From a virus (taxonomy: Duplodnaviria; Caudoviricetes), in IMG/VR virus record IMGVR_UViG_3300033061_002769, positions 1,780 through 65,779 of that record: a DNA stretch of 64,000 bases, one strand, 5' to 3'. The position numbers were made by a program, and so were the translations under genes. The stretch's first letter is position 1. Every line of letters starts with the position of its first letter. This document shows, one piece after another, positions 1 through 54,300 of this stretch. The notes beneath the pieces were generated by a model, which worked only from the letters and a program-made list of their open reading frames with translations, did no database searches and was not told the origin of the DNA.

Positions 1-42
1 GATTTGTCCGGATCGGGTTCCTTGCGCCAAGGTGTTTGAATT

Positions 43-990
43 ATGACTAAACCGATGGAGTGGTGTGAAGGTCAACCGAATGACCCGCAACCAATCTTTT
101 ATGCGGGTGTAAACGCTTCGAGTCATCTGCGTGCTCTGCTCGACGCAAATATGAATTCTATTTGTATCAGTTATTATACGCAGAGGCAGTCTCTATTTAG
201 CAAACGGGAACCTTATTGGTTAAAGCTGGCTAAAAAAGGCAAGCTTCGGGTTATGGCTGATTCAGGAGCTTTCAGTTTTTTAATTCGCGCTTACAATAAG
301 CGTGAGTCTGAGAAGGAGATTCTCAAACAGATAGATTCTTATCTTTTTGGTGGTCAAAGCAATCCCTTTGGATATGTAAGTTGGATTCATTCCTATAGTC
401 ATCTTCTTGACTTCTATATCACTTTTGATTATCGGATCAGTTGCTCCCTGATCTATGCTATGACAGAGCGGCTCAACAAAGCGGGTATTTGTCCTGTTCC
501 AGTATATCATGGGGATTCGTCAGGAGATTGGTTGAGACGTTATGCAGAAGAAGGACACAAACTGATCGCGGTCAGCGATTCCTACTTTATGCATGAGAAA
601 ATAAAGTTGAGAAGATTTCTTGATCAGGTTTTTTCCCTCGGTACAAAACTTGGTCTGAATTACCACGGTCTCGGAATCACAGGTAACGAGATGTGGGAAT
701 ATCCTTGGTACAGTGTTGATTCGACAAGTTGGAGAAAGGTGGCTGGGTTTGGGAATATCTTAGTACCGCAAGGATACAGACTTGTATCGTTTCCTGTTTC
801 AGAGGAAAATCCAAAAACCATTGTGAAGGAATCTGCGGGTATCTTGGAGAAGGTCTTGCATGGCAGATTCTCTATAGATGTTCTTAGGAAATCCTTCAAT
901 GCTCGTATGTGTTTTAATGCCTTGATGCTGAAGGAATTCACTGAAAGAAGAAAAGGAGTTTCATGTCTGAAGAAAGCAACTTTGTTTTGA
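43..990 (+). CDS. dpdA: DpdA-like (TGT-fold) 7-deazaguanine DNA transglycosylase
   Basis: TGT/DpdA-type motifs MADSGAFS, PVPVYHG, HGLGIT and SVDSTSW; immediately upstream of folE. Confidence 0.7.
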   Translation: MTKPMEWCEGQPNDPQPIFYAGVNASSHLRALLDANMNSICISYYTQRQSLFSKREPYWLKLAKKGKLRVMADSGAFSFLIRAYNKRESEKEILKQIDSYLFGGQSNPFGYVSWIHSYSHLLDFYITFDYRISCSLIYAMTERLNKAGICPVPVYHGDSSGDWLRRYAEEGHKLIAVSDSYFMHEKIKLRRFLDQVFSLGTKLGLNYHGLGITGNEMWEYPWYSVDSTSWRKVAGFGNILVPQGYRLVSFPVSEENPKTIVKESAGILEKVLHGRFSIDVLRKSFNARMCFNALMLKEFTERRKGVSCLKKATLF

Positions 991-1571
991 GTTCTGGTAC
1001 TCGGGATCAGATACGGCGTGGGGTACTTTCATTGGTTGATGATTTATCTCTTGCTTCTGATCTGGATTCTCACCACTTTGATGGTACCCCGACTCGGGTG
1101 GTCAAAGCCTACGAGGAACTGTTTTCGGGTCTTGGTAAGGACCCGACTTCGGTTCTGACTATTGACTTCCCAGATGGCAACTAGGTCGAGTTCATTGGAG
1201 TCTGCAATATTGATTTTGTCAGCGTTTGTGCTCACCATCTGTTGCCGTTTGTCGGTTATGCGCATTTTGCTTATCTGCCCGATGGTAAAGTTGTAGGACT
1301 GTCTAAGATTCCCCGTCTGATTGATATTCTGGCCCGACGGCCGCAGATTCAGGAAAATCTGACTCGACAGATTGTAGATGTGTTTCAGAAGACTGTCGAG
1401 CCGCGAGGCTGCGCAGTAGTTATCGATGCTTGGCATGCCTGTGTAGCCATTCGTGGCGTTCAGAAACCGCGGACTATGATGCGGACTAGCGCCTTGACGG
1501 GTTGGTTTCTAGAGAAATCAGATTTGAAGCAGGAACTGTTCAGTTTGATCAATCTGGAGGTCAGGAAGTGA
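963..1571 (+). pseudogene. folE: GTP cyclohydrolase I interrupted by one in-frame TAG (1182-1184); pseudogene, readthrough or sequence error
   Basis: One frame reads TPTRVVKAY...[51 protein letters not shown]...RPQIQENLT...HACVAIRGV, i.e. all FolE motifs; the ORF track splits it into 963-1184 and 1242-1571. Confidence 0.85.
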
Positions 1572-14365: not shown

Positions 14366-15240
14366 TGCAATACCTCCTGGTACACTTTCATCAACTTTTG
14401 CGCAACGTTACTCCAGGTCAATCGTCTGGCTGCCTCGTTCGGTCGCCAATCCCACAAATCCATATCATAAGCTTTCCGAATCTGCTCTTTGAAATACTCC
14501 GGCGACCCATTCGGGTCTACGGTTACCAACCCTGGATACCACTCATTACCACGATTAGCCGATGTCGCCAGCACCCGACAACCTGAGCAAAGAGCTTCAC
14601 CGATGACTAGTGACATTCGTTCCGTATGACTAGCCGACACAAAAACCTTACGGCGTTTATATTGCTCCGGCATTGCTTCATGTGGAAAACCCTGGAGGTA
14701 ATCGAATGGGATATCCAATACATGGCATGCTTCTTCAACTGCGGCCCGCCGCTTCCCATCGTTCTTACGAGCACCAACCGAACAAACTCCCACCCGATCC
14801 GATCCCTCACCAAATGCATGAAATATCGAATCTGTGCCATTCGGGATAGGAGTGTATGGAATACACTCCCCCAACCACACACGCATTTCCTCGCCCTCAG
14901 TACAGGAAAACGGGAGTATCACTGATGCCATTTGTAACCATGCTGCAATCTCTTTCGGCTTCAAGCCGCAGTCTTCGTCAGGATAGAAGATCGGAGTCAC
15001 CACGTATGGTTTCTCTTCCCACGTCGCTACCTTAAAGTTTCCCCGACTCCACAAAAAATTACAGTGGAACACATGTATCAAATCCGCGCGTCCCAGGCTC
15101 TTTAGGTCTTCCGTACCGTCCCAACAGTCCACACCTGCGCGTTGAAGAGCCGCTAGGGTAGCATCCAATGCAATCAGATCTCCTCCGAGATAATCCCGCT
15201 TCCGGTTCAGAAATGCTATACGCATCGCAGCTTCTCGCAA
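14362..15240 (-). CDS. GT-B (GT4-like) glycosyltransferase
   Basis: GGD motif, IPNG and VFVSASHTERMSLVIGEALCSG. Confidence 0.75.
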   Translation of the reverse strand: MREAAMRIAFLNRKRDYLGGDLIALDATLAALQRAGVDCWDGTEDLKSLGRADLIHVFHCNFLWSRGNFKVATWEEKPYVVTPIFYPDEDCGLKPKEIAAWLQMASVILPFSCTEGEEMRVWLGECIPYTPIPNGTDSIFHAFGEGSDRVGVCSVGARKNDGKRRAAVEEACHVLDIPFDYLQGFPHEAMPEQYKRRKVFVSASHTERMSLVIGEALCSGCRVLATSANRGNEWYPGLVTVDPNGSPEYFKEQIRKAYDMDLWDWRPNEAARRLTWSNVAQKLMKVYQEVLQ

Positions 15241-15872
15241 GTCCGTCGGCAGTACAATCCGTGGTCTCCGAAACCCATCCTTCCTGTACTATTGTTCGGA
15301 TGGGGACGGTAATGAAACAATGGCTCATGCAACGCCACGATCTTCCACCCACAGGAAACTATTTTACCCCACAGTAGCCAATCCTCATAGATGTCGCGCT
15401 GCTCGTCGTACCCGCCTACCTGTTCCCAGGCTTGCTTCCGAAACATCGAGCAGCAAAACAGGAGATTGCCCTCTAGAAAACGTTCCGCCGTAAAAGGAGG
15501 AGATACCCGCGCCACGCGTCCATCTGGCCAAACCAGACTTGGGGCCACCACTCCTACTTCAGACGTTATCAACTCTAAACAACGTTCGATGTACGTTGAC
15601 TCAATCCAGTCATCGGCATCCAGAGGTACAATAAACTCTGATCGAGCGGTTGTAATACCGATATTGCGGGCATTGGCCTGTCCCTGCGGCAAGCGGCTCA
15701 TCCAGATAATTCCGTCTCCCTGAGCACGGACCACATCGTGAGAGTTGTCAGTAGATTCCCCATCCACAACAATAATCTCATCGGGGCGAACCGTCTGCGT
15801 CAAAGCACTGCGGAGAGCATCAGCCAAGAACTGGCCATAGTTTAGATTCGGAATGACAACAGCGACACTCAT
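15216..15872 (-). CDS. GT2 glycosyltransferase
   Basis: VVIPNLNYG, IIVVDG, ARNIG, LDADD and EDWLLW. Confidence 0.9.
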   Translation of the reverse strand: MSVAVVIPNLNYGQFLADALRSALTQTVRPDEIIVVDGESTDNSHDVVRAQGDGIIWMSRLPQGQANARNIGITTARSEFIVPLDADDWIESTYIERCLELITSEVGVVAPSLVWPDGRVARVSPPFTAERFLEGNLLFCCSMFRKQAWEQVGGYDEQRDIYEDWLLWGKIVSCGWKIVALHEPLFHYRPHPNNSTGRMGFGDHGLYCRRTCEKLRCV

Positions 15873-16720
15873 ACAACTTCTTCTACCTTTCTTCTGAAGC
15901 TATACAGAATGTCCTGATGTGTAGCTCGCACATCGGAGAAATCCATCATATCCAAATCAATCCGTTCACCGACCAGAAAACGGTCGTTCAATTCTTCAGC
16001 ACTTCCACCCATGCTAACTTGGGGCCAGGCTGTCTGAACCAGATTATGAGGGATGCCTACCAGACTGCTATGCTGATCATAGAATATTTCCAGCGGTTGC
16101 CCCGACCGCTGCATATAAGCTTCCAACCTGTTGGGGCAATCGAACTCCAAACAGCGCACCAACGGGAGAAGGTCGTCGGTCCGGAATACATGACCATCAA
16201 GCGAGTAAGAATACCGGAAGTTCTCTGAGCCCGGAACCTGCTCTTTCCTAGTTACGTAATCCCGTTGAATGTTCTGACCCAGACGAAATGAAAAACACTG
16301 GCCAGACTGTAGTTTTGGAACAAGAGGAGCAGACCGATAGAATACATCGTCGTCTACCAGCATAGTTGTCAATGCTGTATCAGGAAGAATAAGTGAAAGC
16401 AAATCGTCCCGAAAAGAGGAACCCTGCTGAAGAAAGAAAACCTTAGAAGGGTGTTCCGCGATCAGGATTCGGTAGGCTTCCCGATATCGGTCCTCAGTAG
16501 CCAGGAACAGAACGGTGGCCGGAAGTAGCTGCGGAGCAAACCGTATCAGGCTCCTCAGTAGAGCATCAAGCTGGGTGGCCCGATCTTTGGAGAAAATGAT
16601 TGTGTTAATACTCACGTGAGGTTCAACAGGCGTTAGAGAAACCAACCAGATCCCGTCACGCATTAGGACACGAACAGGCGCTGGCGCATCAGATCTTTTG
16701 ATGAGAGGATTCGAGATCAC
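15869..16720 (-). CDS. Putative GT-A glycosyltransferase, paralog of domain 2 of the 1639-aa protein
   Basis: IIFSKDRATQLDALL and VDDDVFY; long near-identical blocks shared with 51357-56276. Confidence 0.6.
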   Translation of the reverse strand: MISNPLIKRSDAPAPVRVLMRDGIWLVSLTPVEPHVSINTIIFSKDRATQLDALLRSLIRFAPQLLPATVLFLATEDRYREAYRILIAEHPSKVFFLQQGSSFRDDLLSLILPDTALTTMLVDDDVFYRSAPLVPKLQSGQCFSFRLGQNIQRDYVTRKEQVPGSENFRYSYSLDGHVFRTDDLLPLVRCLEFDCPNRLEAYMQRSGQPLEIFYDQHSSLVGIPHNLVQTAWPQVSMGGSAEELNDRFLVGERIDLDMMDFSDVRATHQDILYSFRRKVEEVV

Positions 16721-23470: not shown

Positions 23471-24475
23471 CTACTGGATTACGCTCAAGAGCATGTAACC
23501 CAGGTACTTGCTGACGAGACCGAAGGTATAAGCCTGTTCGATCTCGACGTGGTCGGCAGCATCGATCTCCCAACGATACTTCTTGATCCGCATGCCGGCG
23601 GCCGTAGCGCCTGTCAGACCCGTCCAGTTGAAGGTATAACCCGCACTGGGCTGCATGATCCCCGGAGAATCCGCAGCATAGGCCAGCAAAGCATGCTTGC
23701 CCGAAATGAAGTCGAACGTATCGGGCGTGGTATCCGAGTCGGCTACCAGGTCCTCAGCCGAGGTTGTCTGGATACCCGACATCACCACAACACGCTTGAC
23801 CTTGAACAGCGCAGCGAGGTCCGTCGTGGTGACGACGACGGCGCCCGGAGCGGTTTGGCCGTACTTCAAACGGTCGATAATCTCGGGATTGGTAAGCAGT
23901 GTCACGAAGACCTGCGCGCCCAGTACCAAAATATTGGGCCACATTCCTGTAGCTTTCTTGATGGCCAGTTGTCCGGCCAGAACGTCCTCGATAGGCGTGG
24001 ACCCACTGAGGTTCCAGTACTTGACGTGGGTAGCATCGGCAGCTGCCTGGCCTGCCAGCTCCGTACCCCAAAGACCGGTAGCGAAGTAGGCGCTACCCCA
24101 GGCAACGTCACGGTTGACAAGAGCCTGTTGTGTCAACCAGAACGTAGCGTCACGGTCAGGTTGAAGGGGTGAATCGCTGTTGTCCCGGATCTGGTCATCG
24201 ATAATCTTCTTTTCGGCCCAGACGTCAGCAATGTACGTCTTGGTCGTCAGTTTGTAACCTCCAGCGGCAGCCGGGGTACCGGGTGCACGCTTTTGCATGT
24301 TGTTGCGGAAGAAGTCGCCGCGATTGTAGACGAAGTACACATCGCTTTTGTTGGTAACCGGGATAGGCGGAAACACAACATTGGCAACGAAGTCACTCTG
24401 GTCTTGCAAGTAGCCCACTGACAACATTGTCAGGGGCCTGTTAACGTGGACATCACCAAGGGTTGGAAGAGGCAT
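23471..24475 (-). CDS. Major capsid protein
   Basis: 334 aa, downstream of the scaffold and cement genes; HK97-fold (capsid E-like) appearance; strong RBS. Confidence 0.8.
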   Translation of the reverse strand: MPLPTLGDVHVNRPLTMLSVGYLQDQSDFVANVVFPPIPVTNKSDVYFVYNRGDFFRNNMQKRAPGTPAAAGGYKLTTKTYIADVWAEKKIIDDQIRDNSDSPLQPDRDATFWLTQQALVNRDVAWGSAYFATGLWGTELAGQAAADATHVKYWNLSGSTPIEDVLAGQLAIKKATGMWPNILVLGAQVFVTLLTNPEIIDRLKYGQTAPGAVVVTTTDLAALFKVKRVVVMSGIQTTSAEDLVADSDTTPDTFDFISGKHALLAYAADSPGIMQPSAGYTFNWTGLTGATAAGMRIKKYRWEIDAADHVEIEQAYTFGLVSKYLGYMLLSVIQ

Positions 24476-24529: not shown

Positions 24530-24895
24530 TTACATCTTCGATGCCTTGGGCTGATAGATGATATCGGCCAAGTAGGTGCTGACGCCGGCTGTAAGCGCAA
24601 TGCCTAGCACGTAGGCACCACTGGTAGCAGCAACGGCACAACCGCTGCCGTCGGTAGAAACATCATCGCCTGCGTTGAACGCGCCGCCACACTTCACTTT
24701 CGTGATGTCACCTGGATAACACACTGCTCCCGGATCGGCCGCTGCTGGCTTGTCCTGAATAACCCCAACGGCGTAGCCGCCGGCACTGGGGGTTGCGAGT
24801 TGGCCATTGGTATCGATCTTCACGAACGTGTACTGCTTTGACGCAAAGGTCGCCGTGGCCTTGATGGACTTGGTCTTCACGATTTCGTAGGCCAT
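24530..24895 (-). CDS. Capsid cement/decoration protein (DUF2190-like)
   Basis: 121 aa, Gly/Ala-rich (GVIQDKP, GDDVSTDGSGCAV); directly upstream of the capsid gene. Confidence 0.7.
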   Translation of the reverse strand: MAYEIVKTKSIKATATFASKQYTFVKIDTNGQLATPSAGGYAVGVIQDKPAAADPGAVCYPGDITKVKCGGAFNAGDDVSTDGSGCAVAATSGAYVLGIALTAGVSTYLADIIYQPKASKM

Positions 24896-24926: not shown

Positions 24927-25003
24927 TGGTAGACCCTGTAGGAATTGAACCTACAACCGTCGGATTATAAATCCGCTGCTCTGACCCACTGAGCTAAGGG
25001 TCT
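24927..25003 (-). tRNA. tRNA-Ile with UAU anticodon
   Basis: AGACCCT TA GCTC AGTGGGTCA GAGC A GCGGA TTTATAA TCCGA CGGTT GTAGG TTCAATT CCTAC AGGGTCT A CCA: perfect 7-bp acceptor stem, D and T arms, encoded CCA, anticodon TAT, A73. Confidence 0.92.
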
Positions 25004-25013
25004 CCGTTAGAAA

Positions 25014-26504
25014 CTACTGTTGGACTGCAAACTGCCGGTGCTGGCGTTCGTAATCCAAGTAGACCTCAGGGCATTCCTCCATAGCCTTAGCCGTAGCCTT
25101 GCCTTCGGAGATGTTATCGCGCTTGGCGATCTCATGGACTTTGGCTTCCCATGCCCGTTCGGCTGGGATCGTGCCTCCCGCCTTGCCTACTTCGCCGTAG
25201 TGGATAGCCAAAGCCTTGTCGGCTGCCTTCAGGTCAGCGAGCGTCTTCATGAAGTCGTCACTTTGCTCGCCGCCCAAAGCATCGGCAAGCTTCATCAATC
25301 GAGCGCCCTTTTCATCGGCCGTGCCGGCTGTATGGGGAAGCTCCTCCTCAGCCCGTTTTGCAAAATGCATCAGGCGCTCGCGCTTGCTGATCTCCGCCAG
25401 TTGCAGTTCGGCCTTGGCTACCCGATCCTCGGCAGATGCAACTTTGGCGACCAGAGCTTTGCGTGCTTTCTCTTTTTCCTGCTCTGCAGCTTCCTCTTCA
25501 GCCGTTTCGGCAGCCTCTTCGGCAGCGGAGCCCTCGTCGTCCTTGGCTTTCTGGCAGGCTGCCAGCATCGCCTTCCGCTTCTCCTCATCGGCCGCCATGA
25601 ACTCCTTCCGCTTCTCCATCGGCAGCGAAGCGTAGAGCTTGCGGTCTTTCTTAGACATCTTGAGAACGATGTCATTCTCCAGCTTCAGGGCGTCATTTTC
25701 GGCCTTGAAAACCGTCAGTTGAGCGTCCTGTTCCGTAACACGCTTTTCAATCTCATCTAGTGTCATTCCTGTTTCTCCTTTGTTAAGAACCTCGGGCAAC
25801 TCGTTGTCGCCCTTGTCTGGGTTTGCAGCACGCCAAGCGGCGCGTACTTTGACCTTGACGCCGGATAGCGCTTCGGTCGGAATCTGAACCTTCTTGCCTC
25901 GAAAACCTTTTCCAAGCGCAGCAATTGCTGCTCCCACGATGCCCGGGTCAGGCTTGCCTCCGGGGGTGGAGGTAAGACGAAGCTTCCAATGACTAGGAAC
26001 GTCATCAGGTGCGTAAGCAAAATCGCTTCTGGGAAAGCTCACTCCGTCTTGCATTTTGCCATCAACTGCCTTACAGATCAGATCATTTTCATCCCATTCA
26101 TCAGCAGCTTTCTTTGCCTGACCCGGAGTGATAGTACGAAAGCGTTCAAAACTATCAGGATCTTCTTGTCGGAATCGAAATGACTCACCTGTCTCGTCCA
26201 CTTCCAAACCTTTGAAGTCGTGATCAGATAGCCATTTCTTAGCTGAAGCAACAGTCCAGTTTCCCTTGTCGAAGATTACTGACTGGACCTTAGACCCGCC
26301 ACCGGACTTAGGAAAACCAAGGACGAACTTGACTCCGCTAACGCCCTTGCAAATCTCTGCAAACTCTTCGCCGGAGTCGCGCTTCCAGAGCGCGACCATT
26401 GCATGCCGGATCTTGCGCCCTGTCTTCGGATCAATTGAACTGTTGGCAGGGGTGTCACAAAGACTCACCTCATCCACAACAAGCGAATGCAACTCGGTAG
26501 CCAT
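25014..26504 (-). CDS. Head scaffolding protein (multi-domain)
   Basis: N-terminal EVSLCDTPAN motif typical of XkdF-type head modules; long Glu/Lys/Ala coiled coil; lies between protease and capsid genes. Confidence 0.7.
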   Translation of the reverse strand: MATELHSLVVDEVSLCDTPANSSIDPKTGRKIRHAMVALWKRDSGEEFAEICKGVSGVKFVLGFPKSGGGSKVQSVIFDKGNWTVASAKKWLSDHDFKGLEVDETGESFRFRQEDPDSFERFRTITPGQAKKAADEWDENDLICKAVDGKMQDGVSFPRSDFAYAPDDVPSHWKLRLTSTPGGKPDPGIVGAAIAALGKGFRGKKVQIPTEALSGVKVKVRAAWRAANPDKGDNELPEVLNKGETGMTLDEIEKRVTEQDAQLTVFKAENDALKLENDIVLKMSKKDRKLYASLPMEKRKEFMAADEEKRKAMLAACQKAKDDEGSAAEEAAETAEEEAAEQEKEKARKALVAKVASAEDRVAKAELQLAEISKRERLMHFAKRAEEELPHTAGTADEKGARLMKLADALGGEQSDDFMKTLADLKAADKALAIHYGEVGKAGGTIPAERAWEAKVHEIAKRDNISEGKATAKAMEECPEVYLDYERQHRQFAVQQ

Positions 26505-26805: not shown

Positions 26806-28923
26806 TCAACGTTTATAACGACTAAGATCTCTCCATTCTGGTATCTTGGCCAATCGGTTAATGCGTTGTCCCACTCCAACGACAGCCCTCTCCGGCAAAC
26901 CAGCACTGCGAAGAGCATCTAAGATTGACTCGCGGGCTGCAATATACGGCTTTGCATAGGGGGCTACCGAAGGTGGAGGAAGATCAGATCCTGCGGCAAA
27001 TCTATGAGCCGCCTCATAAACAAACTCGTTATTGTACGTACCCTGGTAGTTGCCTTTATCTGGAAATGAAAGCCCATGGTCAATGAGGTGAAGCCTTCCC
27101 CCTGGCTCCACTAGCCAATTGCCCGCATGTCTGTCCTCATTCCCAATTACATAGTCAAAGACAGCTGCTCGGGCCAATCCTTCACGTCCATCATAAGTAT
27201 CTTCAGGAAACGAGCTCTTTATAGCTTCCTCACCGGGCATAAAGGCCATCATGGCCCCCCGTTCACCATCGACCTCTCGTATTGCAACCGGAGCAACCAT
27301 ATCATCCATCCCGACAATCTTGGCTACTTGCCAGGCGGCGAACTCACGCTCAGTTTCATACCCTGGCGTGATATTAGTGCGCAATGGTTCAAGCGAAGCG
27401 CCAGATTGAGGTTTAAAAACAGCTTTGTCTCCGTTTGCCAAAGTGACAAGCATGGTCTCATTCTCCCCGCCCCCAAGATCCTTCCTGCCGCTAATCCCTT
27501 GCGATAATAAATTCTTCTCTGCAACGCCCGGACCAGATGATCCGCCTGTGACTTCAGGAGACCCTTCCCCACCACCATCTCCGGACCATCTTCCCTGTTC
27601 ATCACGTGGCTGATCAAGATCATACTTCACCAAGTTCGCCTCTTCGATCTTTTGCCGTTTCCCGCGCCCACCAATACTGAAAGCCCGTAATTCACCAGTC
27701 TTGATCTTCTTCCAGGTTTCCGGGTCGTCCACACGGAATCCTCCAAACCATCCTACGCACTTCAGGTCCAGAGCGGCATCGATACCCTGATCGTGAAGAG
27801 ATTTGAGCATCACCTCCTGCTTCTCCTGTGTAAAGACAACAGACTCGACCAGACGCCCGATACCAACCACGTCATCATTCTTGTTGGTCTCGTGCATCTC
27901 GCCCGCTTTGCGGGCATGGAGAACAAATTCGTAGGCACTGGACTCCAACATTTCGGAGGAGATCACGTCGCCTTGGGCGTCGGTTATAGATTTGCCATCA
28001 ATAGCGACTATTGAGAACCATCCGAAGACAAGTTGCCGTTCAGGGTCCAGTTTGACAATAGCACCTTCAATCTCGAAGTCCCGTTCGTTCGTCTTCTCAA
28101 CAAAAGTTCCTGTCAGAGGATACTCCTTCCGCTCACCACCAATACATAACACGATTATGCTGAACGTAACCTGAACCGGGTCAATCCTCTGAACGGGCAG
28201 ATCGGCTTTAGGATCAATGTAGGCCAACGTAACATGCGATGTATAGCCAAAATTCTTACGAGGTTCAAACCCAGCAGACTCCAAAGCTTCTACCAGCTCA
28301 CAACGAAAGTCCTGAATCTTCGTTGATTCAAACGTAGCAATCGCAACATCTTTGTTGTCCGAATGCTCAGTAGCGTTGAATCGCCCCGGACCTCCCAGTT
28401 CACCTGAAACCGGAGCGTGACTAGACGCAAAGTTCTGGATAGCAGTTTCAAGAGCGGGAAGCATTGCCGCATCTACTTCTTCCTGCTTCCCCAAATATGC
28501 CAGTGTCAGATGAAGATCCCCAAAAGACTCACCGTCTTCCAAAGCGAGTTTGGCAGCCGTCTCGGAATCAGGAAAGAAGGCAATCATGATACCGCTACCG
28601 GCCTTCTCGATATCGATCCAGTCGGCTTTCTCGACATCCTCTTCATCTGCCGTCCCATCGGTGATAATGACAAATTCCTGATCCTTAGCAAGATCTACGA
28701 ATGCATTGCAAACCGAAGCAACATCCGATTCGCTCTTACTGGCAAGGACACGCATTTCAGTAATAGCCTTTTCGACATCTTCAGTATATCCGCGCTGAAC
28801 AAGTGAGACGAGCGTCGGGTACTTCTTGCCATCCTTGTTGACCACGGCAATCAAGTCCGAGTATCCAGAACTTGAGGCAAACTGTCCAAGCGCCTCAGTC
28901 ACATTTGCGATTTCCAGACCCAT
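26806..28923 (-). CDS. Polyprotein: N-terminal domain + 2H phosphoesterase + XkdF-like prohead protease + PI3/PI4K/HipA-like kinase
   Basis: 2H motifs LHLTLAY and SHVTLAY; protease-like QLVFGW, DAQGD, GEMH and AFSIGG; kinase AVFKP, REFAAW, DRHAGN and IDHG. Confidence 0.8.
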   Translation of the reverse strand: MGLEIANVTEALGQFASSSGYSDLIAVVNKDGKKYPTLVSLVQRGYTEDVEKAITEMRVLASKSESDVASVCNAFVDLAKDQEFVIITDGTADEEDVEKADWIDIEKAGSGIMIAFFPDSETAAKLALEDGESFGDLHLTLAYLGKQEEVDAAMLPALETAIQNFASSHAPVSGELGGPGRFNATEHSDNKDVAIATFESTKIQDFRCELVEALESAGFEPRKNFGYTSHVTLAYIDPKADLPVQRIDPVQVTFSIIVLCIGGERKEYPLTGTFVEKTNERDFEIEGAIVKLDPERQLVFGWFSIVAIDGKSITDAQGDVISSEMLESSAYEFVLHARKAGEMHETNKNDDVVGIGRLVESVVFTQEKQEVMLKSLHDQGIDAALDLKCVGWFGGFRVDDPETWKKIKTGELRAFSIGGRGKRQKIEEANLVKYDLDQPRDEQGRWSGDGGGEGSPEVTGGSSGPGVAEKNLLSQGISGRKDLGGGENETMLVTLANGDKAVFKPQSGASLEPLRTNITPGYETEREFAAWQVAKIVGMDDMVAPVAIREVDGERGAMMAFMPGEEAIKSSFPEDTYDGREGLARAAVFDYVIGNEDRHAGNWLVEPGGRLHLIDHGLSFPDKGNYQGTYNNEFVYEAAHRFAAGSDLPPPSVAPYAKPYIAARESILDALRSAGLPERAVVGVGQRINRLAKIPEWRDLSRYKR

Positions 28924-28926
28924 ACA

Positions 28927-31290
28927 CTACCTTCCTCTCACCATCTCACGCAGAGTAGGCAAGGTCACCAAAGTCATCGACCGAACCCGAAATGAGCCAA
29001 CTCCCTTAGAGACATAATACTTCGTACCTCCGGCACGCTTGTCAGCTACTACAGTAAACATCTTGATTCGGCTGCGAACAGACTCCCCCACCTTACGGTC
29101 CATGGCAACCTTGCTCATGGTAATCTTCCCGTTCCTACTATCTACCATAGTTTTCAATTCGACCCCGACTTTGTCGTTGCGCAAATCGAATGCTGAGTTA
29201 TCACCGGTCCTAGGAATACCCAATGCACGACTGATAATCCGCTCCTGCTCATCTGCAATCCGCTGCTTGTCGGCTCCGCAAGGTTTTCGAGAGTCCAAGG
29301 CCCTCTGCGCTCGCTCGGATAGTTTAGGAAGTATAGCAACTGTACCTGCGACTCGCGGGTTGCCCCGGATCACTTCGCCTTTGTCGTTGACCATCACATG
29401 CTGACCGTTGATTGTGACCCATTCACCCTCCTCGTCATCCCCGGCCTTCTCGACTTGGTCGCGCTCAATCTTCTTCAGCACTCGTCCAGCCCAAAGAGCG
29501 GCCCGCGATCCACCCCAGGCATTGCGCCAAATGTCGGGCGTGTCGGTTGCTGTATCTTCAGTGGCAAAATAGGCAGCGATCTTTCGGACCTCGACTTCGG
29601 CAATGCCCTCGCCCTTGGAAAGCGGCTCGGTGATGCCGTTAATGGAAGTCCCAGCTTCCTGTGCCGTCTTGCAGGCACGGTTGACTTCAATGGGAGGTAA
29701 ATAGAGCGTAAGAGTATGATCTTCAGCTTTCTCCAAATCCTCGTTGCCCTTGTCGGTATCATCGTCAGTCAGACTGTGTAGAATGAGATAGACACCCGGT
29801 TTCAGTTCATCATCGTCAGTCACATCAATCTCTTTGATTTTGCCATTGTGCCAACGAAGCATGTCGGCATGTTCAGGGTCGTTGGGTTTGAGCAAATCCT
29901 TGATGTCTAACTTGTAATCCTCGGGACAGTCAGCATCGACCCAACTCTTAAGCAACTCCATGCCACGTGAATGCATTACAACGCCGATCTTCATGTTGGG
30001 ATGAATTTCGGAGTCTGTGTAGACATCCAGCAGATAATCCAACTGCCGGATTTTGGCATTCTCAAATGGTTCACCCGGTTTCCCATCGTTGCCTTTCCCG
30101 GGGGGTACTTCCTCGGGATGTTCTATGTAATGTTCAATCAAGCTTCCTACATCGCTCGATTCCCGACCTTCCATCTCGCCCAGACGCCACGGTCGAAGAG
30201 CATCGGCAGGTTCAGCACGTTCCATTTCCGGGTTGTGTTTAGCAATAGCGTCTGCTGTTTCAATAGCACGCGGCAACGGGGAACTGTGCAACACATCCAA
30301 TCCACCTTTAAGAGCGATCCGTTGGCCCAACTTGTCGGCCAGCACGCGTCCCTTGGAGTTGAGCGAGATAGAAGAATTACCACTGATGCGTTTAGCAATC
30401 TCTTCAAGTTGCCCTTCACGTTTTAGATATTCCCCAGAATGCAAAGCGGCGCGGCCGCGTTCTCCATAACGAGTTGAATCCGATCTTTCAGACTCTTGAT
30501 AGTCGCCATTTATAATCCAGCCACCACCTACAATACGTTCCGCTGGAATACCTTTGTCTCGCGCCATGCGAACATGGGTAATGCCCGCAAAATCCTTCTG
30601 CCAGTAAAGCGATCCGTCATCCGTCCGGATTGCAGAGAATTGCCCCTTATCAGGAGGAACGGGATCTGGTTTTGGAAGCGCTCGTGGAGAAAGTTTATCA
30701 GTATCTCCTCCCCCATCACCAGCAGTCCACTTCCCGCTTTCATCTCGAGGTTGGTTCTCGGAGTACTTCTTGATCTCTGCTACAATTGCCTCATAGTCGC
30801 TCATGTCGAGAACCGGTTTCTTGATCAGCAACTCTGTAATCTTCTCCGTAATGACATGCAACGGTTCGTCTTCTTTAATCTCCTCACGGGCCGTCTCCAA
30901 CAATCGAATAAACAACGGCACGTCCAGCGTGATCTTATCCTGTTTGGAGATCAACGGCAAAGCCAATACACCTACGTTAGGTGGAGCTACATCCTGCGTA
31001 CCCGGATCGTCCTTTCTTTTGTCTGATCCAAGAGGACGGTTGACATGAACATCACCTACTGTAAGAGCGTCCTTATGAATCCAAACCTTCTTCTCCGAGT
31101 TCCACAAATAGCCTGCATCTTCCAGCACGCGGTACGCCTTAATATAGGCGTGCATCTCCGTCCGCCCGTCACTGACATGAGAATTAAACGCCGCGCGAAA
31201 GAGCGTCTGAGCAACATCGTCGGGTAGCGCCGCGCGGACTGCCTCAGGAAGATCACCATTCGCGGAGTAGTGAATGACGCGGAGTTTCAT
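28927..31290 (-). CDS. Polyvalent head protein: ChaB-like + histidine-phosphatase-like + further domains + C-terminal PD-(D/E)xK-like domain
   Basis: LPEAVRAALP..AQTLFRAAFNS (ChaB-like); SSPLPRAIETA, LGEMEG and VMHS (His-phosphatase-like, no clear RHG); AFDL...VELKT. Confidence 0.65.
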   Translation of the reverse strand: MKLRVIHYSANGDLPEAVRAALPDDVAQTLFRAAFNSHVSDGRTEMHAYIKAYRVLEDAGYLWNSEKKVWIHKDALTVGDVHVNRPLGSDKRKDDPGTQDVAPPNVGVLALPLISKQDKITLDVPLFIRLLETAREEIKEDEPLHVITEKITELLIKKPVLDMSDYEAIVAEIKKYSENQPRDESGKWTAGDGGGDTDKLSPRALPKPDPVPPDKGQFSAIRTDDGSLYWQKDFAGITHVRMARDKGIPAERIVGGGWIINGDYQESERSDSTRYGERGRAALHSGEYLKREGQLEEIAKRISGNSSISLNSKGRVLADKLGQRIALKGGLDVLHSSPLPRAIETADAIAKHNPEMERAEPADALRPWRLGEMEGRESSDVGSLIEHYIEHPEEVPPGKGNDGKPGEPFENAKIRQLDYLLDVYTDSEIHPNMKIGVVMHSRGMELLKSWVDADCPEDYKLDIKDLLKPNDPEHADMLRWHNGKIKEIDVTDDDELKPGVYLILHSLTDDDTDKGNEDLEKAEDHTLTLYLPPIEVNRACKTAQEAGTSINGITEPLSKGEGIAEVEVRKIAAYFATEDTATDTPDIWRNAWGGSRAALWAGRVLKKIERDQVEKAGDDEEGEWVTINGQHVMVNDKGEVIRGNPRVAGTVAILPKLSERAQRALDSRKPCGADKQRIADEQERIISRALGIPRTGDNSAFDLRNDKVGVELKTMVDSRNGKITMSKVAMDRKVGESVRSRIKMFTVVADKRAGGTKYYVSKGVGSFRVRSMTLVTLPTLREMVRGR

Positions 31291-32294
31291 TATGCCGCTA
31301 CCTCTTTCAAACTATCAGCATCGATTGCCGTAGTACATCGGCAAGAAGGATGCGGATCAGGTGGCTCCATGATTCCCGGTGCAAATTCCTCATCCATACC
31401 TGCCGTTTCCTCATCCAGACCCGCGCACTCAGAACAGGTCCGATCATCCATCGAAGCTATCCACCGCCGCCGTGCTGTATGCGGAAGCAATCCTTGTTGC
31501 CGGGCCTGCCGCCAAAGCTCGCGTTGTCCTTTATTTGCGGCTCTTATGCTCTCGGTCCTAGCAATGTTTCGCGCTCGATACTGTAAATACCGTTCCCGAT
31601 ACCGTTGCACCAGTTTGTCGATGTAGTTCTTATCAAGGCTCTGTCCCGTGTTAAGCGCCCGAAGGAGAGTTGGGTCGAAACGACCGTCGCGCAAGGAACG
31701 GGACAGAGCATTGCGCAGCGCCGAGCCCCCCGACTCCAGCGCCTTACGATAATTGGTTACGGCTTGTTCCATACGAGCCGTCAACCCGATTATGCCTTTG
31801 ATCTCGCGTGCCTGTTCATAAGGATGACCCCCTTCACGAAAGGCCCTCAGGATAACCTGCTGAACTGCTTCACGCTGACTCTGGGTAACCTGTTGAATCA
31901 AATTGAATGTGTAGGATTGCAAAAAGTTCACCGATTCGGGATTCAACAAATCGAACGAGAGATTCACACTCACTTTAGCGGGCAGACGCATCATTGCTAC
32001 CTTGGCTCCAGCTGCGTAGGCCATCTGAATGGCATCACGCACGCTCTGGATGTTGGCCTCCAGACCTTTGCCTTGGAGAGCCCCGGTCAGCCGCTCGTCC
32101 AATGCCAGAATCGCCATGACTTGATTGACGTCTCCGCTTTCCAATGCTGCACTCAACTTGTTCAAAGCGATCTGACTTTTTACAGCTTCGATCGCCGCCA
32201 GGTAGGCGTTGCGAATCTTCGGTTCCATTGACGCTGCTGCTAGCAGCAACGGATCGTCGGAGGAGAGCATCACTTTGAGAATAGTTATGGGCAT
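31290..32294 (-). CDS. MuF (Mu gpF/SPP1 gp7-like) head morphogenesis protein
   Basis: IARTE...RRWIASMDDRTCSEC...HPSCRC; immediately after the portal gene. Confidence 0.9.
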   Translation of the reverse strand: MPITILKVMLSSDDPLLLAAASMEPKIRNAYLAAIEAVKSQIALNKLSAALESGDVNQVMAILALDERLTGALQGKGLEANIQSVRDAIQMAYAAGAKVAMMRLPAKVSVNLSFDLLNPESVNFLQSYTFNLIQQVTQSQREAVQQVILRAFREGGHPYEQAREIKGIIGLTARMEQAVTNYRKALESGGSALRNALSRSLRDGRFDPTLLRALNTGQSLDKNYIDKLVQRYRERYLQYRARNIARTESIRAANKGQRELWRQARQQGLLPHTARRRWIASMDDRTCSECAGLDEETAGMDEEFAPGIMEPPDPHPSCRCTTAIDADSLKEVAA

Positions 32295-32296
32295 AA

Positions 32297-33772
32297 CTAC
32301 ACTGCTGTCTCCAAACGATCTCCCGCTTCCTGTTGGTTTGTCGGACTACTCGCCGTAGGCTTCTTCCCCGTCGGTCGTGTAGCGGCTCCGGGTTGTTGTG
32401 GCACAGGCGGTTGTTTCGATCCTGCCTCGGCATCTTCCGGTTCCTCGGGCAGACGTCCGACTTTTCTGACGTAGTTTGCTGTCTCGCGATCAAAAAATGT
32501 CATGCCCGACGCTGATAGTTTGCTGATGAAGTCCGCCAGCTCCTCCAAATCCCGGACACCGATCTCACCCGCAACCAGCTTTGGGGCATCCGTGATATCC
32601 ATCGCGTTCAGAGACAAAAGGCGTGGGATAGCAATCCGATTGATCACAGCTGCAACCGAATCCATGAACGCTCCAATAGCCAATGAGAAGATCTGTGTAG
32701 CACTCATATGCAAGGCCCGACTGCCCGTAGGTGTCTGCCCGAACTGCACAAAGCCCGCCAAAACGGTATTGAGCATGTCGGCGTTGTAGCGTTGAATCGC
32801 CGCTCCGGGGTCCGTCTGTTTAGCCCCGGCTGTTCGCAACAGTTCCAACTTGACATGCGGGTTGCCCTTCTCATCGTAAGCTTGTGGGAGAACAATACCA
32901 GCCTGATCATCGATACGGATGTCACGAACCAGTTTACGGGCAGCATCGGCCCCAGTCAACCCGTTCATGTTCATCTGGGCCAACGCTTCGGCGCTCATGT
33001 AAAGAACCGGAATGCCGCAAAGATCGCGTTCGATTCCGATTCCCTCGATCTCTTCCAGGCGGCGCTTGAAGACCCACGAACGGTAGCAGTTGCGCAACAG
33101 GCTTCTGCCTTCAGGATTATTTTTCAGGTTGGTTGTACGGAACAACAACAGCTTTTCAATTGGAATAGGAACCGTCCGATAGTCAGGAGCAGCCAACTGC
33201 ACAGCGCCCTGAAGGCCACCCTCATCGTCCCAGATCCAGTAAAGAATCGACTCCTGGGCACGAGGAGCAATCTTGCGCCATCCGATAAGTCCATCATCGT
33301 ATTTTGATGCCTTGCGGCCATCAGGTCCCTGTCGTCGTTTGTAAACCGTCTCGAACAGAGCAAAGCCAAAGGCAAACATACTAACACATTCGGAAACGAA
33401 ATCTTCCCAGGTATGGCTCATGTCCTCCATACATTCGGTAACGAACTGAGCCAGCTTCTCACCCTGCTTTGTCTTGGCCGGTTCCACCCGCCACTCGGCA
33501 CGCCGAAGGATCATTTCAAGAGCAAAAAACATCGATCCGATGACCGCATCATTATCGCGCATCTCACGGTAGATTTGTTTAGCACGAGCAGTGGAAAGAT
33601 CACGAAGCCACTCTTCAAAAATGTACCCAGTTCCTTTTGTACGCAGCAAACCCGAAACACCAAACTCTGCCATTGGCGTTGGCTTAGGGAGATCCTTTGG
33701 AATAGTTCCCGGTATCACAGCAATCTCTTGTCGCGGTGAAACTACTTTTGCAATTTTATCTATCAAAGCCAT
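32297..33772 (-). CDS. Portal protein (Mu gp29/DUF935-like)
   Basis: 491 aa between TerL and MuF; NPEGRSLLR and GIERDLCGIP. Confidence 0.85.
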   Translation of the reverse strand: MALIDKIAKVVSPRQEIAVIPGTIPKDLPKPTPMAEFGVSGLLRTKGTGYIFEEWLRDLSTARAKQIYREMRDNDAVIGSMFFALEMILRRAEWRVEPAKTKQGEKLAQFVTECMEDMSHTWEDFVSECVSMFAFGFALFETVYKRRQGPDGRKASKYDDGLIGWRKIAPRAQESILYWIWDDEGGLQGAVQLAAPDYRTVPIPIEKLLLFRTTNLKNNPEGRSLLRNCYRSWVFKRRLEEIEGIGIERDLCGIPVLYMSAEALAQMNMNGLTGADAARKLVRDIRIDDQAGIVLPQAYDEKGNPHVKLELLRTAGAKQTDPGAAIQRYNADMLNTVLAGFVQFGQTPTGSRALHMSATQIFSLAIGAFMDSVAAVINRIAIPRLLSLNAMDITDAPKLVAGEIGVRDLEELADFISKLSASGMTFFDRETANYVRKVGRLPEEPEDAEAGSKQPPVPQQPGAATRPTGKKPTASSPTNQQEAGDRLETAV

Positions 33773-33783
33773 TTGACCTTCTT

Positions 33784-34650
33784 TTACGAACTACATTTTC
33801 GCATCATACCTTCTCGGGTCTTCACTGAAATCATTTGGCGGTGTACTGGGTCCGTCATTTGCTTCTTTGTACATTGAGAAAGATGCGCTCGTACTTTTGG
33901 GTCCGCCATCTTTTTCTTCATCCATTTGGAATGCTGAGCGCACTGCTGTTTGTAAGTCGGGTCGTTAATAGCCTTTTCCAACATCGTCTTTCGGATCGTA
34001 GCTGCAACACGAGCCTTGAACTCAGGATTGGCCCAACGACGTTTTGCATTTTCTGACATCTTTGCCCGGAATGCAGGATCTTGTTTCACCTTCTTCAAGG
34101 TACGGCTAACCCGCGCCTTGAATTTTGGATCGCTCCATCTTTTCTTAGCTCTTTCAGAACGGCGCGCCCGCTCTTTTGGATCTGCTCCAATATGAAGTGC
34201 TCTTTCCGAAATTTTTGCGCGGTGCTCGGGATCACAATCAGCCTTGCGCATTCCCTCAATTACCTTTTTGCGAAACTTGGAATTGCTCCAATTCCGTTTT
34301 GTCGTATATGATAACCTCTTACAAGACCGTTTGCAAAGATTTCGTATTCCATCCCCACCATCCGTTGAATTAGTAAGGTTGCAACCCCGCCTCCGCAACT
34401 TATATATCCATTGCATCTCAGCGGTCGCAGGGTCGCTCACATCAACCTGAAGAATTACTAGTTGGGGTTCCAATCCCTTCCGTAATAGCAATTGAATCCA
34501 ACAAATCTTGTGAGTTCGATGTTCTCCAGTAAAATTCTTTGCTTCTTTGATATGTCCTCGGTAGCGGTGCACAGGATTCTTTGAATACCCCACATAACGA
34601 ATTACTCCATCACGCGGGTCAGTCAAAGCATAAACCGAAGCAGTGTTCAT
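33784..34650 (-). CDS. Free-standing GIY-YIG homing endonuclease with basic repeats
   Basis: VYALTDP...RYVG, LTN..DGGDG; repeated K/R-rich WSDPxF units (NUMOD3-like). Confidence 0.8.
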   Translation of the reverse strand: MNTASVYALTDPRDGVIRYVGYSKNPVHRYRGHIKEAKNFTGEHRTHKICWIQLLLRKGLEPQLVILQVDVSDPATAEMQWIYKLRRRGCNLTNSTDGGDGIRNLCKRSCKRLSYTTKRNWSNSKFRKKVIEGMRKADCDPEHRAKISERALHIGADPKERARRSERAKKRWSDPKFKARVSRTLKKVKQDPAFRAKMSENAKRRWANPEFKARVAATIRKTMLEKAINDPTYKQQCAQHSKWMKKKMADPKVRAHLSQCTKKQMTDPVHRQMISVKTREGMMRKCSS

Positions 34651-50718: not shown

Positions 50719-51388
50719 GAGTTGTCTCCAAGAGCGATTCCAAAGATTGAAATGGCCAACACTTCAATCCAGACTCCGGTGTAGCATTGATCACCTCAAC
50801 TCCAATTTTAGCCAGCGGCTCTACCAGTGAATCAAAACAGGGCAGCATTGAATCGCGAATGACACTCTCGAATCCATCAGGGCGTATCTCATCATGCCAA
50901 TGCGTACGGCCATTAATAGCGCGCATGTCCACGCCCAAAAGCACAATCCGCCGAACGTCGTAATGCACAGCCAGATTCATCGCCTGATAAGTACTGTTCG
51001 ACCCATGACGCAGTCCCAACGGGGCCGTCTCCAATCCAAGCTGCCCAGTCAGCCGCAAATAATGAACTTGCGGATGGCCCTGAAAAGCTGGGCTGCTCGT
51101 CACCCAGAAGCCCCGATAAATCATTTCGTGGAAGCATACGGGTGAAGCCGGAACCGTACTTATTGAACGAAGGTTCTTGGCCATCTGATACTGCCACCAA
51201 TGCTCATCACAGAAATAGAAGACCGATGCCCAGGGTGCCAACCGCCAACTGTCATTAATAGTAATCACCCGTCCATGACCCCGAAGAACATCAGCATCGA
51301 ATCCTCGCAATGACGGGCCGCCGGCAAGGATAAAGCAGGTTTCATCAGGCCATGATTTAGGTACTGACCAAAGCATCTCTTTCCTCAC
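50711..51388 (-). CDS. DUF115/MptE-like putative glycosyltransferase
   Basis: ILAGGPSL, ITIN, GSNSTYQAMN and IVLLGVDM; paralog of 22476-23048. Confidence 0.6.
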   Translation of the reverse strand: MRKEMLWSVPKSWPDETCFILAGGPSLRGFDADVLRGHGRVITINDSWRLAPWASVFYFCDEHWWQYQMAKNLRSISTVPASPVCFHEMIYRGFWVTSSPAFQGHPQVHYLRLTGQLGLETAPLGLRHGSNSTYQAMNLAVHYDVRRIVLLGVDMRAINGRTHWHDEIRPDGFESVIRDSMLPCFDSLVEPLAKIGVEVINATPESGLKCWPFQSLESLLETTRV

Positions 51389-54300
51389 TTATACGGAGAG
51401 TTTCCGCTACAACCTCTACCGTCTCTGATAAATCTCCGTTGATGAAATGAACTCCTGAGCACGCAAATGCACCCTGATAGATCGGTAAATTCCGCATCAG
51501 CACCGGCATTCCCCAGGCCAATGCTTCTCGGGGAACGAGTGGTGACAACTCCGAGGTGGAGGTAAACAGCAGCACATCCATCGCTGCGTAGAAGCGGTCC
51601 ACATCATTACGTTCACCCCAGATGTTACAGTTGACAGGACGGATCTTCATCAACGGTTCCCAGTAATCTGAAAAATTTAGCGCCTGATTCCCAACAAAAT
51701 GGAACTCAACAGCCGGCAACTCCCGCGCGATCTCAAAAGCTTCACGCTGATTCTTGCCTGGTGTAAAGAGCCCAACGTTAAGTACATGTTTCAGATCTGG
51801 ATCTAGACCCAGCGAGGTCAGAGCTATCGTCCTATCGGGCCGTACCTTCGGAGAGACTGAATATTCAGCAATCGAACACGGTATGAGCGGGTGGGCTTCT
51901 CGGCACAGATCAGCGTGATGTTGACAAACAACGACAAACGCATCGGGTATCCATCGCTTTGCTCTTGGATCGAAGCTACTGTCGTGGGATGTCTCGACAA
52001 GGCGGTAGCGCCTGTCGTTACGGTAAAGCACTTCACAAGCAGGGTTCGGAAGGAAGTACTCAGCGTGCTCTTGTAGGTGCACGATGTCTGGATTGAACTC
52101 AGTTAGCATCTCGGACAGCGCCGCCACACGATTCATGTGTCCATGGAATGGATGAAGGATGCCCATATCCTCGATTTGCTTCCTCTGCACCACGAAGTCC
52201 GACCCGTAGTAGTTCCATTCAACCACACACACTTCGGCCCCGACCGCGCGCAGGTCCCGAACACAGTTGAGCGCATACTGCGGAAGTCCGCCGGTGGAGA
52301 GATGCGGAACGATCTCCAGCACCCGCCAAGGATGAATGCCTAGAACTTCCGGGAACTGGGTCACCCTCTGAGGCATTGCTTCCGGGAACTGGGTTGCGCT
52401 CCGGGGCATTGGCAGAGCCGAGTTGATCGCGTCCTTCACCATCTCGACTGTAATTGCCTTGGTGCATTCGAAGTTCTTCTCACGTGGACACCATTCGGGG
52501 TCGGCTCGGTTGAGTAGATAAGTCGTGTCGTTGAAGCACCCGTGACATACGGACTCATTGATGACTCGGTAGCAGTCCTGCATCTCCACGTAGCGTGGGG
52601 TCATTCCGGATATGAGCACGACAGGGACGCCAAGAGCCCAAGCAACCCAGGCGAGGCCCGAGGATACACCGATGAACAGATCCGCGTGCTGAATGTTTCG
52701 GATTGTCTCCTCAATAGGCCGATCGTTCCAGCGCAATACACCGCCAAGGTGAGTAGGTTCCTTGCTCACGGAGGCTACAGAATAGCCCATGGTAGATAGG
52801 TAATCGGCAATAGCCTGCCACTTGTCTTGTGTCCACTGCTTCCCCACGTACCCGCGCGAGTAAGCGCGCTCGGCCTGGCCAATGACTTGAAATGCCGAGA
52901 ACTCAGAGAACGCGACATACTTCTCTTTGGGGGCAGGCAAATCAGAGGTGTAAATCTTCGGCCGAATCTCCCGGTAGTCCAATCCCAATATATCCGAAGC
53001 CACCTTTTGTAGCGGTATAGTACGCCAAGGAATGCGGTTGCGGTGGCCTCCGTCCCCATCCCAAGCCCCAATGAGGTAAGTCGCACAGTAGCTTTCACGC
53101 TGGGCTTCACCTGGGTTGTAGAATGTGATTTCCGGGTAGGCAGACTCAAACAAATCCTTCCAGAATGTCTCAACCTCGACTTGGCAACCACATTGCTGGC
53201 GCAGTTCATCGGCATAGGGCATCCAGGCCACTGTGTCTCCCAATGCGGAACTAGTGAGCACCACGAGCACACGCTTGCCCCGCAAGTCCATCTCGTGACG
53301 CAACACCTCGACTCCGTTCTCCGTCACTGTGACTCGCCAAGGGATGCGATACCTCGGGTTCGCGGCGGCATAATAGCCCGGTCCGATGGTCGTCGTATAG
53401 ACATTCTCACCAGTCGCCATGTTGTCAAATCGGACAGTGCACTCAGTCTTAGAATCCTCACTGACGCGGACAAATGCTCCATCATTGAACAGTAGGCGAA
53501 CCTGGCTACCACCCGGAGTAACGACCGCCCGAGGAGGCCCATCCGACTGCTCTCCCGAGAGCGCAGCAATGACTTCGGGAGGGCCAGCGGCAAACATACC
53601 GATCCGAACAGCAGGGTTACCCAAAGACATCACGTCAAAGAATGGAAACTTCGTGCGGAGTAACTTCCTGAACGCCGCATATCCACCATCGAGGTGATAC
53701 TCGCCTACAATGAAGCCAATTCTGTTGGCAGCGACGAAAGAACTCATCTGCTTGACAATCTCCACTTCGCTGCCCTCGCAGTCAAGCTTCAACAGATCGA
53801 TATAGACAGCTTCCTCAGCCACGTTTTCCATCGTTACCGACGGCACACCGGTCTCGCTTATCTCTCGCTCGCCGGCCGCTCCACCAGGAAGGGCATACAC
53901 ACCCTCCTTGGTGGTCAGAATCCCGCCCCCAGTCGGATAACCTCTGTGTTCCGCAAGCACAGTCTTCTCGGGTTCGTAAGAGACCGCCTGCCGCCGGACC
54001 TGAACACTCGTTCTGCCGTTCGCCCTCATGTTCCGCTCATACAGAGAGGCAGATTGCCGGTTGGGTTCATAGACAATTAAGTGACTCTCAGGCCACAACG
54101 ATTTCGCCAGCAACCCGAACGTCCCGATGTTTCCACCCACATCCACAATGGTCTCCGGCTTCGGGATCAGTTTGGACAATTCCCTCAAGCAGTAGCAGTC
54201 GTTGATGATCACCTCATCCACAACGTAGCGGTCGCGCTCATGCGGCAACTGAATCACCATCCCATCCGCTTCAGTAACACAGGACCGAAGATGCTTGTAC

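Follow-up and report, generated by a model that had tools for sequence, protein, structure and literature searches.

The head module of an uncultured tailed phage (Caudoviricetes) in the 65.8-kb IMG/VR virus record IMGVR_UViG_3300033061_002769 encodes the same short peptide in two different proteins: it opens the major capsid protein (MCP) and recurs inside a large polyvalent cargo protein. From comparative sequence analysis, we propose that the second occurrence is a portable duplicate of the MCP N-arm, an address tag that would recruit or anchor head proteins via the arm's own partner, and we put the probability of this reading at about one half. The DNA analyzed was a 64,000-nucleotide part of the record, hereafter the window, in which the head genes of the region all lie on the minus strand.

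The capsid N-arm and its copy in the window

The MCP (P0001, 334 residues; 23471-24475) starts with MPLPTLGDVHVNRPL; its arm motif PTLGDVHVNRPL covers residues 4-15 (24431-24466), and the stretch GDVHVNRPL covers residues 7-15 (24431-24457). The polyvalent protein (P0002, 787 residues; 28927-31290) comprises a ChaB-like leader, the tag, a helical module, a His_Phos_1 domain (Pfam E = 2.8e-17) and C-terminal modules, as judged from Pfam and the homologues P0003-P0012. Behind the leader it reads IHK-DALTVGDVHVNRPL (wider context VWIHKDALTVGDVHVNRPLGSDKRK), with the same nine residues at 31030-31056. Reading the codons of both genes by hand gave GGT GAT GTC CAC GTT AAC AGG CCC CTG for the MCP and GGT GAT GTT CAT GTC AAC CGT CCT CTT for the polyvalent protein, which confirmed the starting observation of a preliminary description of this DNA, namely nine identical residues with six of nine codons different. 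That description had overlooked that the likeness extends to a PT pair and an upstream hydrophobic-x-K stretch, that a Lys nine residues before the His is conserved, and that the motif is a family-wide hallmark of the MCP. The complete unit, VWIHK followed by DALTVGDVHVNRPLGS, occupies residues 69-89 (31024-31086), K73 being the conserved Lys nine residues before H82, and is followed directly by a basic stretch and the linker motif KDDPGTQDV (30985-31023). The ChaB-like label of the leader (residues 1-68; 31087-31290) was upheld in part: the region is conserved among the cargo homologues (alignment A1), and relatives are labeled ChaB by the Joint Genome Institute, but the Pfam match at residues 14-57 is weak (E = 1.4e-4, below the gathering score).

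Within the window the shared peptide stands alone. A six-frame scan over the whole length found DVHV only at the MCP and polyvalent sites, and the remaining long shared words belong to full-length paralogues, none being an isolated motif. When the residues of a crude 66-protein proteome of the window were shuffled, a 9-mer common to two different proteins appeared in 1 of 300 shuffles.

To place the motif in its family, we collected 3,695 relatives of the MCP (E up to 0.001) and compared 150 representatives of clusters at 50% identity. PTxxDVHVNxPL proved to be the hallmark N-arm of the family: nearly all representatives begin M-P-x-P-T-x-x-D-V-H-V-N/D-x-P-L-T, and the motif His falls within residues 8-12 in 104 of the 150, and precisely on residue 10 in 61. 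Among 121 family members P4, H10 and L15 are at least 90% conserved, belonging to a set of about 20 such positions in the entire protein. The cultured relatives Pseudomonas phage KPP23 (MKPTPGDVHVNRPL) and Roseobacter phage RDJL Phi 1 (...SRSDVHVNRPL) keep the arm in place, and neither has a polyvalent protein or a second copy of the arm. The arm decays only in distant MCPs, such as those of a Klebsiella phage, the structure 3bjq and Arthrobacter phage Wheelbite. From its annotated start, the Wheelbite MCP (gp25; L159 8718-9677) reads VPEHIDALLTNIS; the PT..D part is missing and the arm is correspondingly short, whether through trimming in this clade or through a mis-annotated gene start.

Profile and fold comparisons agree on an HK97-type capsid protein. 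The window MCP matches PHROG 1005 (HK97 fold, lambda gpE-like; E = 4.4e-69), while Pfam Phage_cap_E is reached below threshold only. Its AlphaFold2 model (predicted local distance difference test score, pLDDT, 93.7) shows an N-arm, an E-loop hairpin and a spine helix, and residues 1-20 are modeled as coil with a pLDDT of about 70, as for a flexible N-arm. The best Foldseek match of the model is 3bjq (E = 6e-20), followed by phage capsids, and encapsulin shells are among the matches.

Tagged cargo proteins, proteases and portals

All 11 ChaB-His_Phos homologues retrieved with the N-terminal 130 residues of the polyvalent protein (42-61% identity overall) carry K-D-S-P-T-V-G-D-V-H-V-N-R-P-L-G-S after the leader, and K73, V81, H82, V83 and P86 are invariant in alignment A1. 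Metagenome loci supplied further tagged cargo examples. In polyvalent proteins containing an XkdF protease domain the unit stands behind three leader types or near the N-terminus, and is therefore modular; at locus L015 it follows the same type of leader that heads the second polyvalent protein of the window. In the homology-derived set, the cargo unit consists of hydrophobic-x-K followed by xxPTxGDVHVNRPLG, ending P-(L/I/M)-G, and the Lys lies exactly nine residues before the His in 21 of 22 tags. Lys and Arg account for 19.5% of the 20 residues after cargo tags versus 4.7% of those after the MCP motif.

The position of this Lys relates the cargo tag to the start of the capsid protein. Nine residues before the His is where Met1 stands in the commonest unextended form of the MCP, that with His at residue 10. 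Among 31 representatives with longer N-termini, 22 have a Lys at exactly this position, preceded by hydrophobic residues (for example MLSFVK-SQPTPGDVH). Given this common register, the shared unit spans about 18 residues: hydrophobic, hydrophobic, x, K, xxPTxxDVHVNxPL. Among 103 unextended MCPs, 74 have Pro as the second residue and another 19 have Ser, Thr or Ala; since Met removal is allowed before these four residues, it is possible in most of them. A cut after the Lys would leave the cargo with an N-terminus as long as that of the mature MCP arm; we infer such a cut from the likeness of the site to other Lys-ending module boundaries in both polyvalent proteins. Two linker motifs recur in these proteins and their relatives: KDDPGTQDV, present once or twice per polyvalent protein and flanking the DVPLFIRLLE helical module, and (N/D)QPRDExG(K/R)W, which precedes enzyme modules.

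Viral contigs were scanned for the pattern K..PT..DVHV(N/D); the matches, classified by MCP profile, came from at least 120 loci. Among the matches listed are MCPs with leaders of 5-8 residues; XkdF proteases of about 240 residues at no fewer than 27 places (at least 20 distinct sequences), in which the unit and a Lys-rich tail form the C-terminal end (...LEK-NDPTVSDVHVDTIM...); and polyvalent proteins joining XkdF with NUDIX, methyltransferase, His_Phos, Zeta-toxin or ligase domains. Also listed are Portal_Mu proteins of two loci (L096 and L132), whose C-terminal tails copy the arm of the MCP on the same contig over at least 20 residues, including the clade-specific P-x-x-x-FSVAY. All carriers of the tag are proteins that need to be inside the procapsid.

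The window itself encodes an XkdF-type head protease as part of a second polyvalent protein (26806-28923), which comprises a leader, a LigT-like domain (2_5_RNA_ligase2), the protease domain (Pfam Peptidase_S78_2, E = 1e-15) and a kinase-like domain (PI3_PI4_kinase). In the protease domain (residues 289-423; 27655-28059), a candidate enzyme for the Lys sites, S303, D314, H343, E359, S360 and S415 are invariant (alignment A4). The AlphaFold2 model of one XkdF protease that ends in the tag (A5) had a mean pLDDT of 59.9, with values below 50 in the tag region, and is too poor to show whether the tag folds back on the enzyme. The tagged proteases (L063:4417-5145:- and about 20 similar loci) also have a beta-rich N-terminal domain of about 75 residues, predicted with a pLDDT of about 90, that carries no family assignment.

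Proposed recruitment and cleavage, and the alternatives

In relatives, compared as the preliminary description had suggested, the cargo motif tracks the MCP N-terminus to a mild degree, with the tag following the clade-specific arm. In the clade of the window both arm and tag read VHVNRPL, in the portal clade both read VHVN-x-P-x-x-x-FSVAY, and in the protease clade VHVDAIL in the arm has VHVDTIM as its counterpart in the tag, neither with Pro. For 13 representative pairs from the same contig, identities summed to 92 over 13 positions, where shuffles gave 81.8 (p = 0.0025), and to 107 over 20 positions, where shuffles gave 92.7 (p = 0.00015); these p-values are optimistic because the 13 pairs represent only about four to six clades. 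In 20-residue windows, the identical residues are mostly written with different codons in 8 of the 13 pairs, including that of the window, which together with retention of the unit in 21 of 22 cargo homologues with no more than 42-60% identity around it supports the earlier proposal of selection on the peptide without recent DNA copying. Recent gene conversion was dropped because the codons differ. That the identity is a functionless by-product, either left over from recombination of head-module genes with the 5' end of the capsid gene or due to chance, would suit the mosaic nature of head modules and a polyvalent domain order that differs in almost every relative; in view of the rarity of a shared 9-mer in shuffles, the six differing codons and the persistence of the unit across diverged cargo proteins and three protein classes, we consider it very improbable.

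Under the address-tag proposal, the tag would bind whatever the MCP N-arm binds during assembly, so that tagged proteins would be co-assembled or retained in the capsid. The invariant Lys would be cut by the head protease in the same way as the other linkers that end in Lys, and its cleavage would free an N-terminus of MCP-arm length on the cargo. What the sequences establish is identity, conservation, register, distribution and co-variation, whereas binding, receptor, cleavage and packaging are inferred. In P22 and 80alpha the MCP N-arm contacts the C-terminal helix of the scaffold. The window encodes a scaffold-like protein of 496 residues (25014-26504; PHROG 19463) whose C-terminal domain is conserved across the family, both in alignment A3 and in KPP23, RDJL Phi 1 and a Klebsiella phage. 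Because of the P22/80alpha contact and this conservation, we regard the scaffold C-terminal domain as the most likely candidate receptor of arm and tag, with the inner face of the shell as the alternative. A complex prediction with scaffold residues 350-496, XkdF residues 276-430 and cargo residues 62-105, run without controls, scored 0.01 against a mark of 0.32 and carries no weight for or against binding. The full scheme, in which one arm of about 18 residues recruits capsid subunit, portal, protease and enzyme cargo via the scaffold C-terminal domain, with release or activation by the Lys cut, is tentative and on balance unlikely. At its N-terminus the scaffold-like protein reads ...VDEVSLCDTPAN, with EVSLVDxPAN in relatives, a strand motif that usually closes protease domains of the HK97 or XkdF type; an ancestral XkdF gene may therefore have split into protease and scaffold.

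In the main rival reading, the same distribution would arise because the unit is mainly a recognition or docking element for the XkdF-type head protease, marking cuts at the Lys or just past the motif, with the leaders (ChaB-like or GQFAS-type) responsible for targeting. The Lys has the hydrophobic-x-K context of the module boundaries LEK, VEK and IEK in both polyvalent proteins, and MCPs with short leaders have the same Lys. From what is known of lambda and T4, every class of carrier (MCP, portal, protease and cargo) is a classic head-protease substrate, and in 80alpha an N-terminal cleavage motif is common to MCP and scaffold. The MCP family also appears to travel with XkdF: the gene is clear in RDJL Phi 1, and KPP23 shows a weak match below the threshold. 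However, about two thirds of the MCPs begin without any leader that could be removed, and P4, H10 and L15 are nonetheless highly conserved in the arm; the motif must therefore act in the MCP itself. Cleavage-site motifs are, moreover, usually short and loosely conserved, unlike the 12-20 residues seen here, and the other linker motifs of the same proteins, KDDPGTQDV and QPRDxxGKW, are absent from the MCP. We consider recognition by the protease as the main function possible, if somewhat unlikely. By analogy with the T4 capsid-targeting sequence (CTS), targeting and protease recognition would be compatible. The capsid-loading signal by N-arm mimicry envisaged in the preliminary description is strengthened by the occurrence of the peptide on head proteases and portals, but head-protease recognition fits the same data.

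Alternatively, the tag might act only after maturation: freed at the Lys, it would fill inner-shell N-arm sites, for example empty ones near the portal vertex, and hold cargo, protease remnants or the portal tail to the capsid wall until ejection. The mature-arm length of the N-terminus that a Lys cut would yield and the arm copy of at least 20 residues in portal tails are in keeping with this. Yet the arm sites of the shell should be occupied one-to-one by MCP arms, leaving few vacant, and in the proteases, where the tag is C-terminal, Lys cleavage would sever it from the enzyme, making this a distinctly doubtful account. Intein-like self-cleavage at HN and FlhB-like self-cleavage at NPTH were also considered and dropped, the residue before Pro being unconserved and the Asn often Asp.

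Several observations weigh against the address-tag proposal. The co-variation of tag and arm is modest: cargo tags drift beside an unchanged MCP arm, to GMVHRDxPL (L011 and L012) and GDVHVPAPI (L010), and the pair at L076 is discordant for Pro. Searches for a cultured phage with a tag on a protein other than the MCP found none, and Wheelbite gp18 is untagged. Sequence, profile and fold searches of the PDB found no assembled capsid of a close relative in which the arm could be placed; the sole close structure, 3bjq, is an isolated prophage protein with a degenerate arm (ARVVDPIL). Finally, portal, protease, cargo and MCP are also typical substrates of head proteases, and the distribution of the tag does not by itself separate targeting from protease recognition.

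To our knowledge, the entry of minor head proteins, protease and injected effectors into the procapsid is understood in detail for a few model phages, each with its own device. If the address-tag proposal is correct, tagging with the capsid arm would be a rule at once simple, general and open to testing across a widespread group of siphophages, would explain the packaging of swappable anti-defense enzyme modules, and would provide a peptide, short and well defined, with which foreign proteins could be loaded into phage capsids in laboratory strains. Should a single receptor serve all carriers, the tag would be a natural handle, transplantable to proteins of choice for loading into HK97-fold capsids, and the co-variation of tag and MCP would mark a co-evolving interface. 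If the unit is instead a protease-recognition element, it would be the first substrate motif for the uncharacterized XkdF protease family.

Gene layout and comparison with known systems

The head module reads, on the minus strand, portal, MuF-like protein, tagged polyvalent protein, XkdF-containing polyvalent protein, a 127-residue open reading frame (ORF), scaffold-like protein, tRNA-Ile, cement-like protein and MCP. The portal protein (Portal_Mu; 32297-33772; Pfam E = 6.4e-36) is untagged in this phage, as read from its C-terminus, and the MuF-like head morphogenesis protein (Pfam Phage_Mu_F, E = 1.2e-11) lies at 31290-32294. The cement- or decoration-like protein of 121 residues (24530-24895; Pfam Phage_cement_2, E = 2e-4; PHROG 673) has an orthologue in KPP23 that mass spectrometry identified in the virion. 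ARAGORN placed a tRNA-Ile with anticodon TAT (24927-25003) within the head operon, in the gap separating the genes for scaffold and cement. A GIY-YIG or homing-endonuclease-like gene (33784-34650, minus strand; Pfam E = 2.3e-4; PHROG 314 homing endonuclease) lies immediately upstream of the portal gene.

In the relative L005, the MuF gene (2-1141, plus strand) seems to be split by an intein-like insert, with C...THNC boundaries identified by eye, which contains an ORF on the opposite strand (272-1096, minus strand). The polyvalent protein of L005 lacks the ChaB leader, and two small genes stand in the leader's place. Elsewhere in the window, parts of a protein of about 1640 residues (51357-56276) are duplicated, with long identical peptides, as two stand-alone genes downstream of the capsid gene (15216-15872 and 15869-16720). 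The same block contains two more paralogous gene pairs, 17131-17730/18482-19072 and 17700-18497/20962-21726.

Iyer, Burroughs, Anand, de Souza and Aravind (2017, PMC5512222) describe phage polyvalent proteins as multi-enzyme polypeptides that share the head module with MuF, portal and an assemblin-like peptidase and for which packaging and processing are predicted. The window protein combines at least two unrelated domains in one polypeptide (the ChaB-like leader, His_Phos_1 and conserved C-terminal modules) and is encoded in a head module with portal, MuF and a processing peptidase. It is a phage-type polyvalent protein in that sense, and may be packaged in the capsid and delivered to the host. 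A term search of PMC5512222 gave no mention of ChaB, XkdF or linkers; neither the peptide nor a likeness to the capsid protein is described there, and we found no literature report matching the motif, XkdF specificity or such capsid targeting.

Among known systems, the CTS of T4 internal proteins IPI-III and Alt resembles the tag in being a short peptide common to unrelated head cargo and coupled to a head-protease site. It is removed by the head protease gp21, and the cargo is injected into the host. The T4 CTS lies at the extreme N-terminus, is cut at its own C-terminal side, binds the scaffolding core and bears no resemblance to the MCP, whereas the tag described here copies the MCP N-arm and may be internal, N-terminal or C-terminal. 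In the window it occupies residues 74-87, behind a 73-residue leader; it stands near the N-terminus only in some relatives (P0198, P0200 and L093) and is C-terminal on proteases and portals. The Lys at nine residues before the His, the sole conserved candidate for a cleavage site, precedes the tag, unlike the site of the T4 CTS.

Scaffold-based recruitment offers a second parallel. The P22 scaffold additionally recruits the portal and the ejection proteins, and the use of a scaffold as common receptor for shell, portal and cargo in P22 and 80alpha is the logic proposed here. The clients of those scaffolds use different surfaces, and we know of no shared peptide copied from the MCP in either phage. 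The Prp-type motif of 80alpha stands at the N-terminus of the MCP and of another head protein and is cleaved directly behind the motif. Here the MCP also has a motif in common with other head proteins, which may or may not be cut at the equivalent point, and those proteins are cargo, protease or portal, not the scaffold. The HK97 head protease gp4 is targeted via its C-terminal tail, and the proteases of lambda or P2 share the C-terminus of the scaffold. As in these phages, a short terminal element would bring the head protease into the procapsid in the clade whose XkdF proteases end in the tag; HK97, lambda and P2 proteases borrow a scaffold-like or dedicated tail, whereas the tag copies the MCP arm, which would be a mirror-image strategy.

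Anti-defense head proteins of phage P1, DarA-Hdf, are held inside the shell and leave with the DNA (PMC12810830). They bind as folded proteins at penton-hexon junctions, and the abstract of PMC12810830 reports no mimicry of the MCP arm. Encapsulin cargo-loading peptides are closer in form, being short cargo peptides that dock on the luminal side of an HK97-fold shell, as proposed for the tag. They share no sequence likeness with it and do not mimic an arm of their own shell, and encapsulins lack portal, scaffold, protease, terminase and tail, whereas portal, MuF, scaffold and head protease are all present in this virus record. The tag would act like a capsid-targeting sequence but departs from the positional definition of a CTS, and it is not an encapsulin loading peptide.

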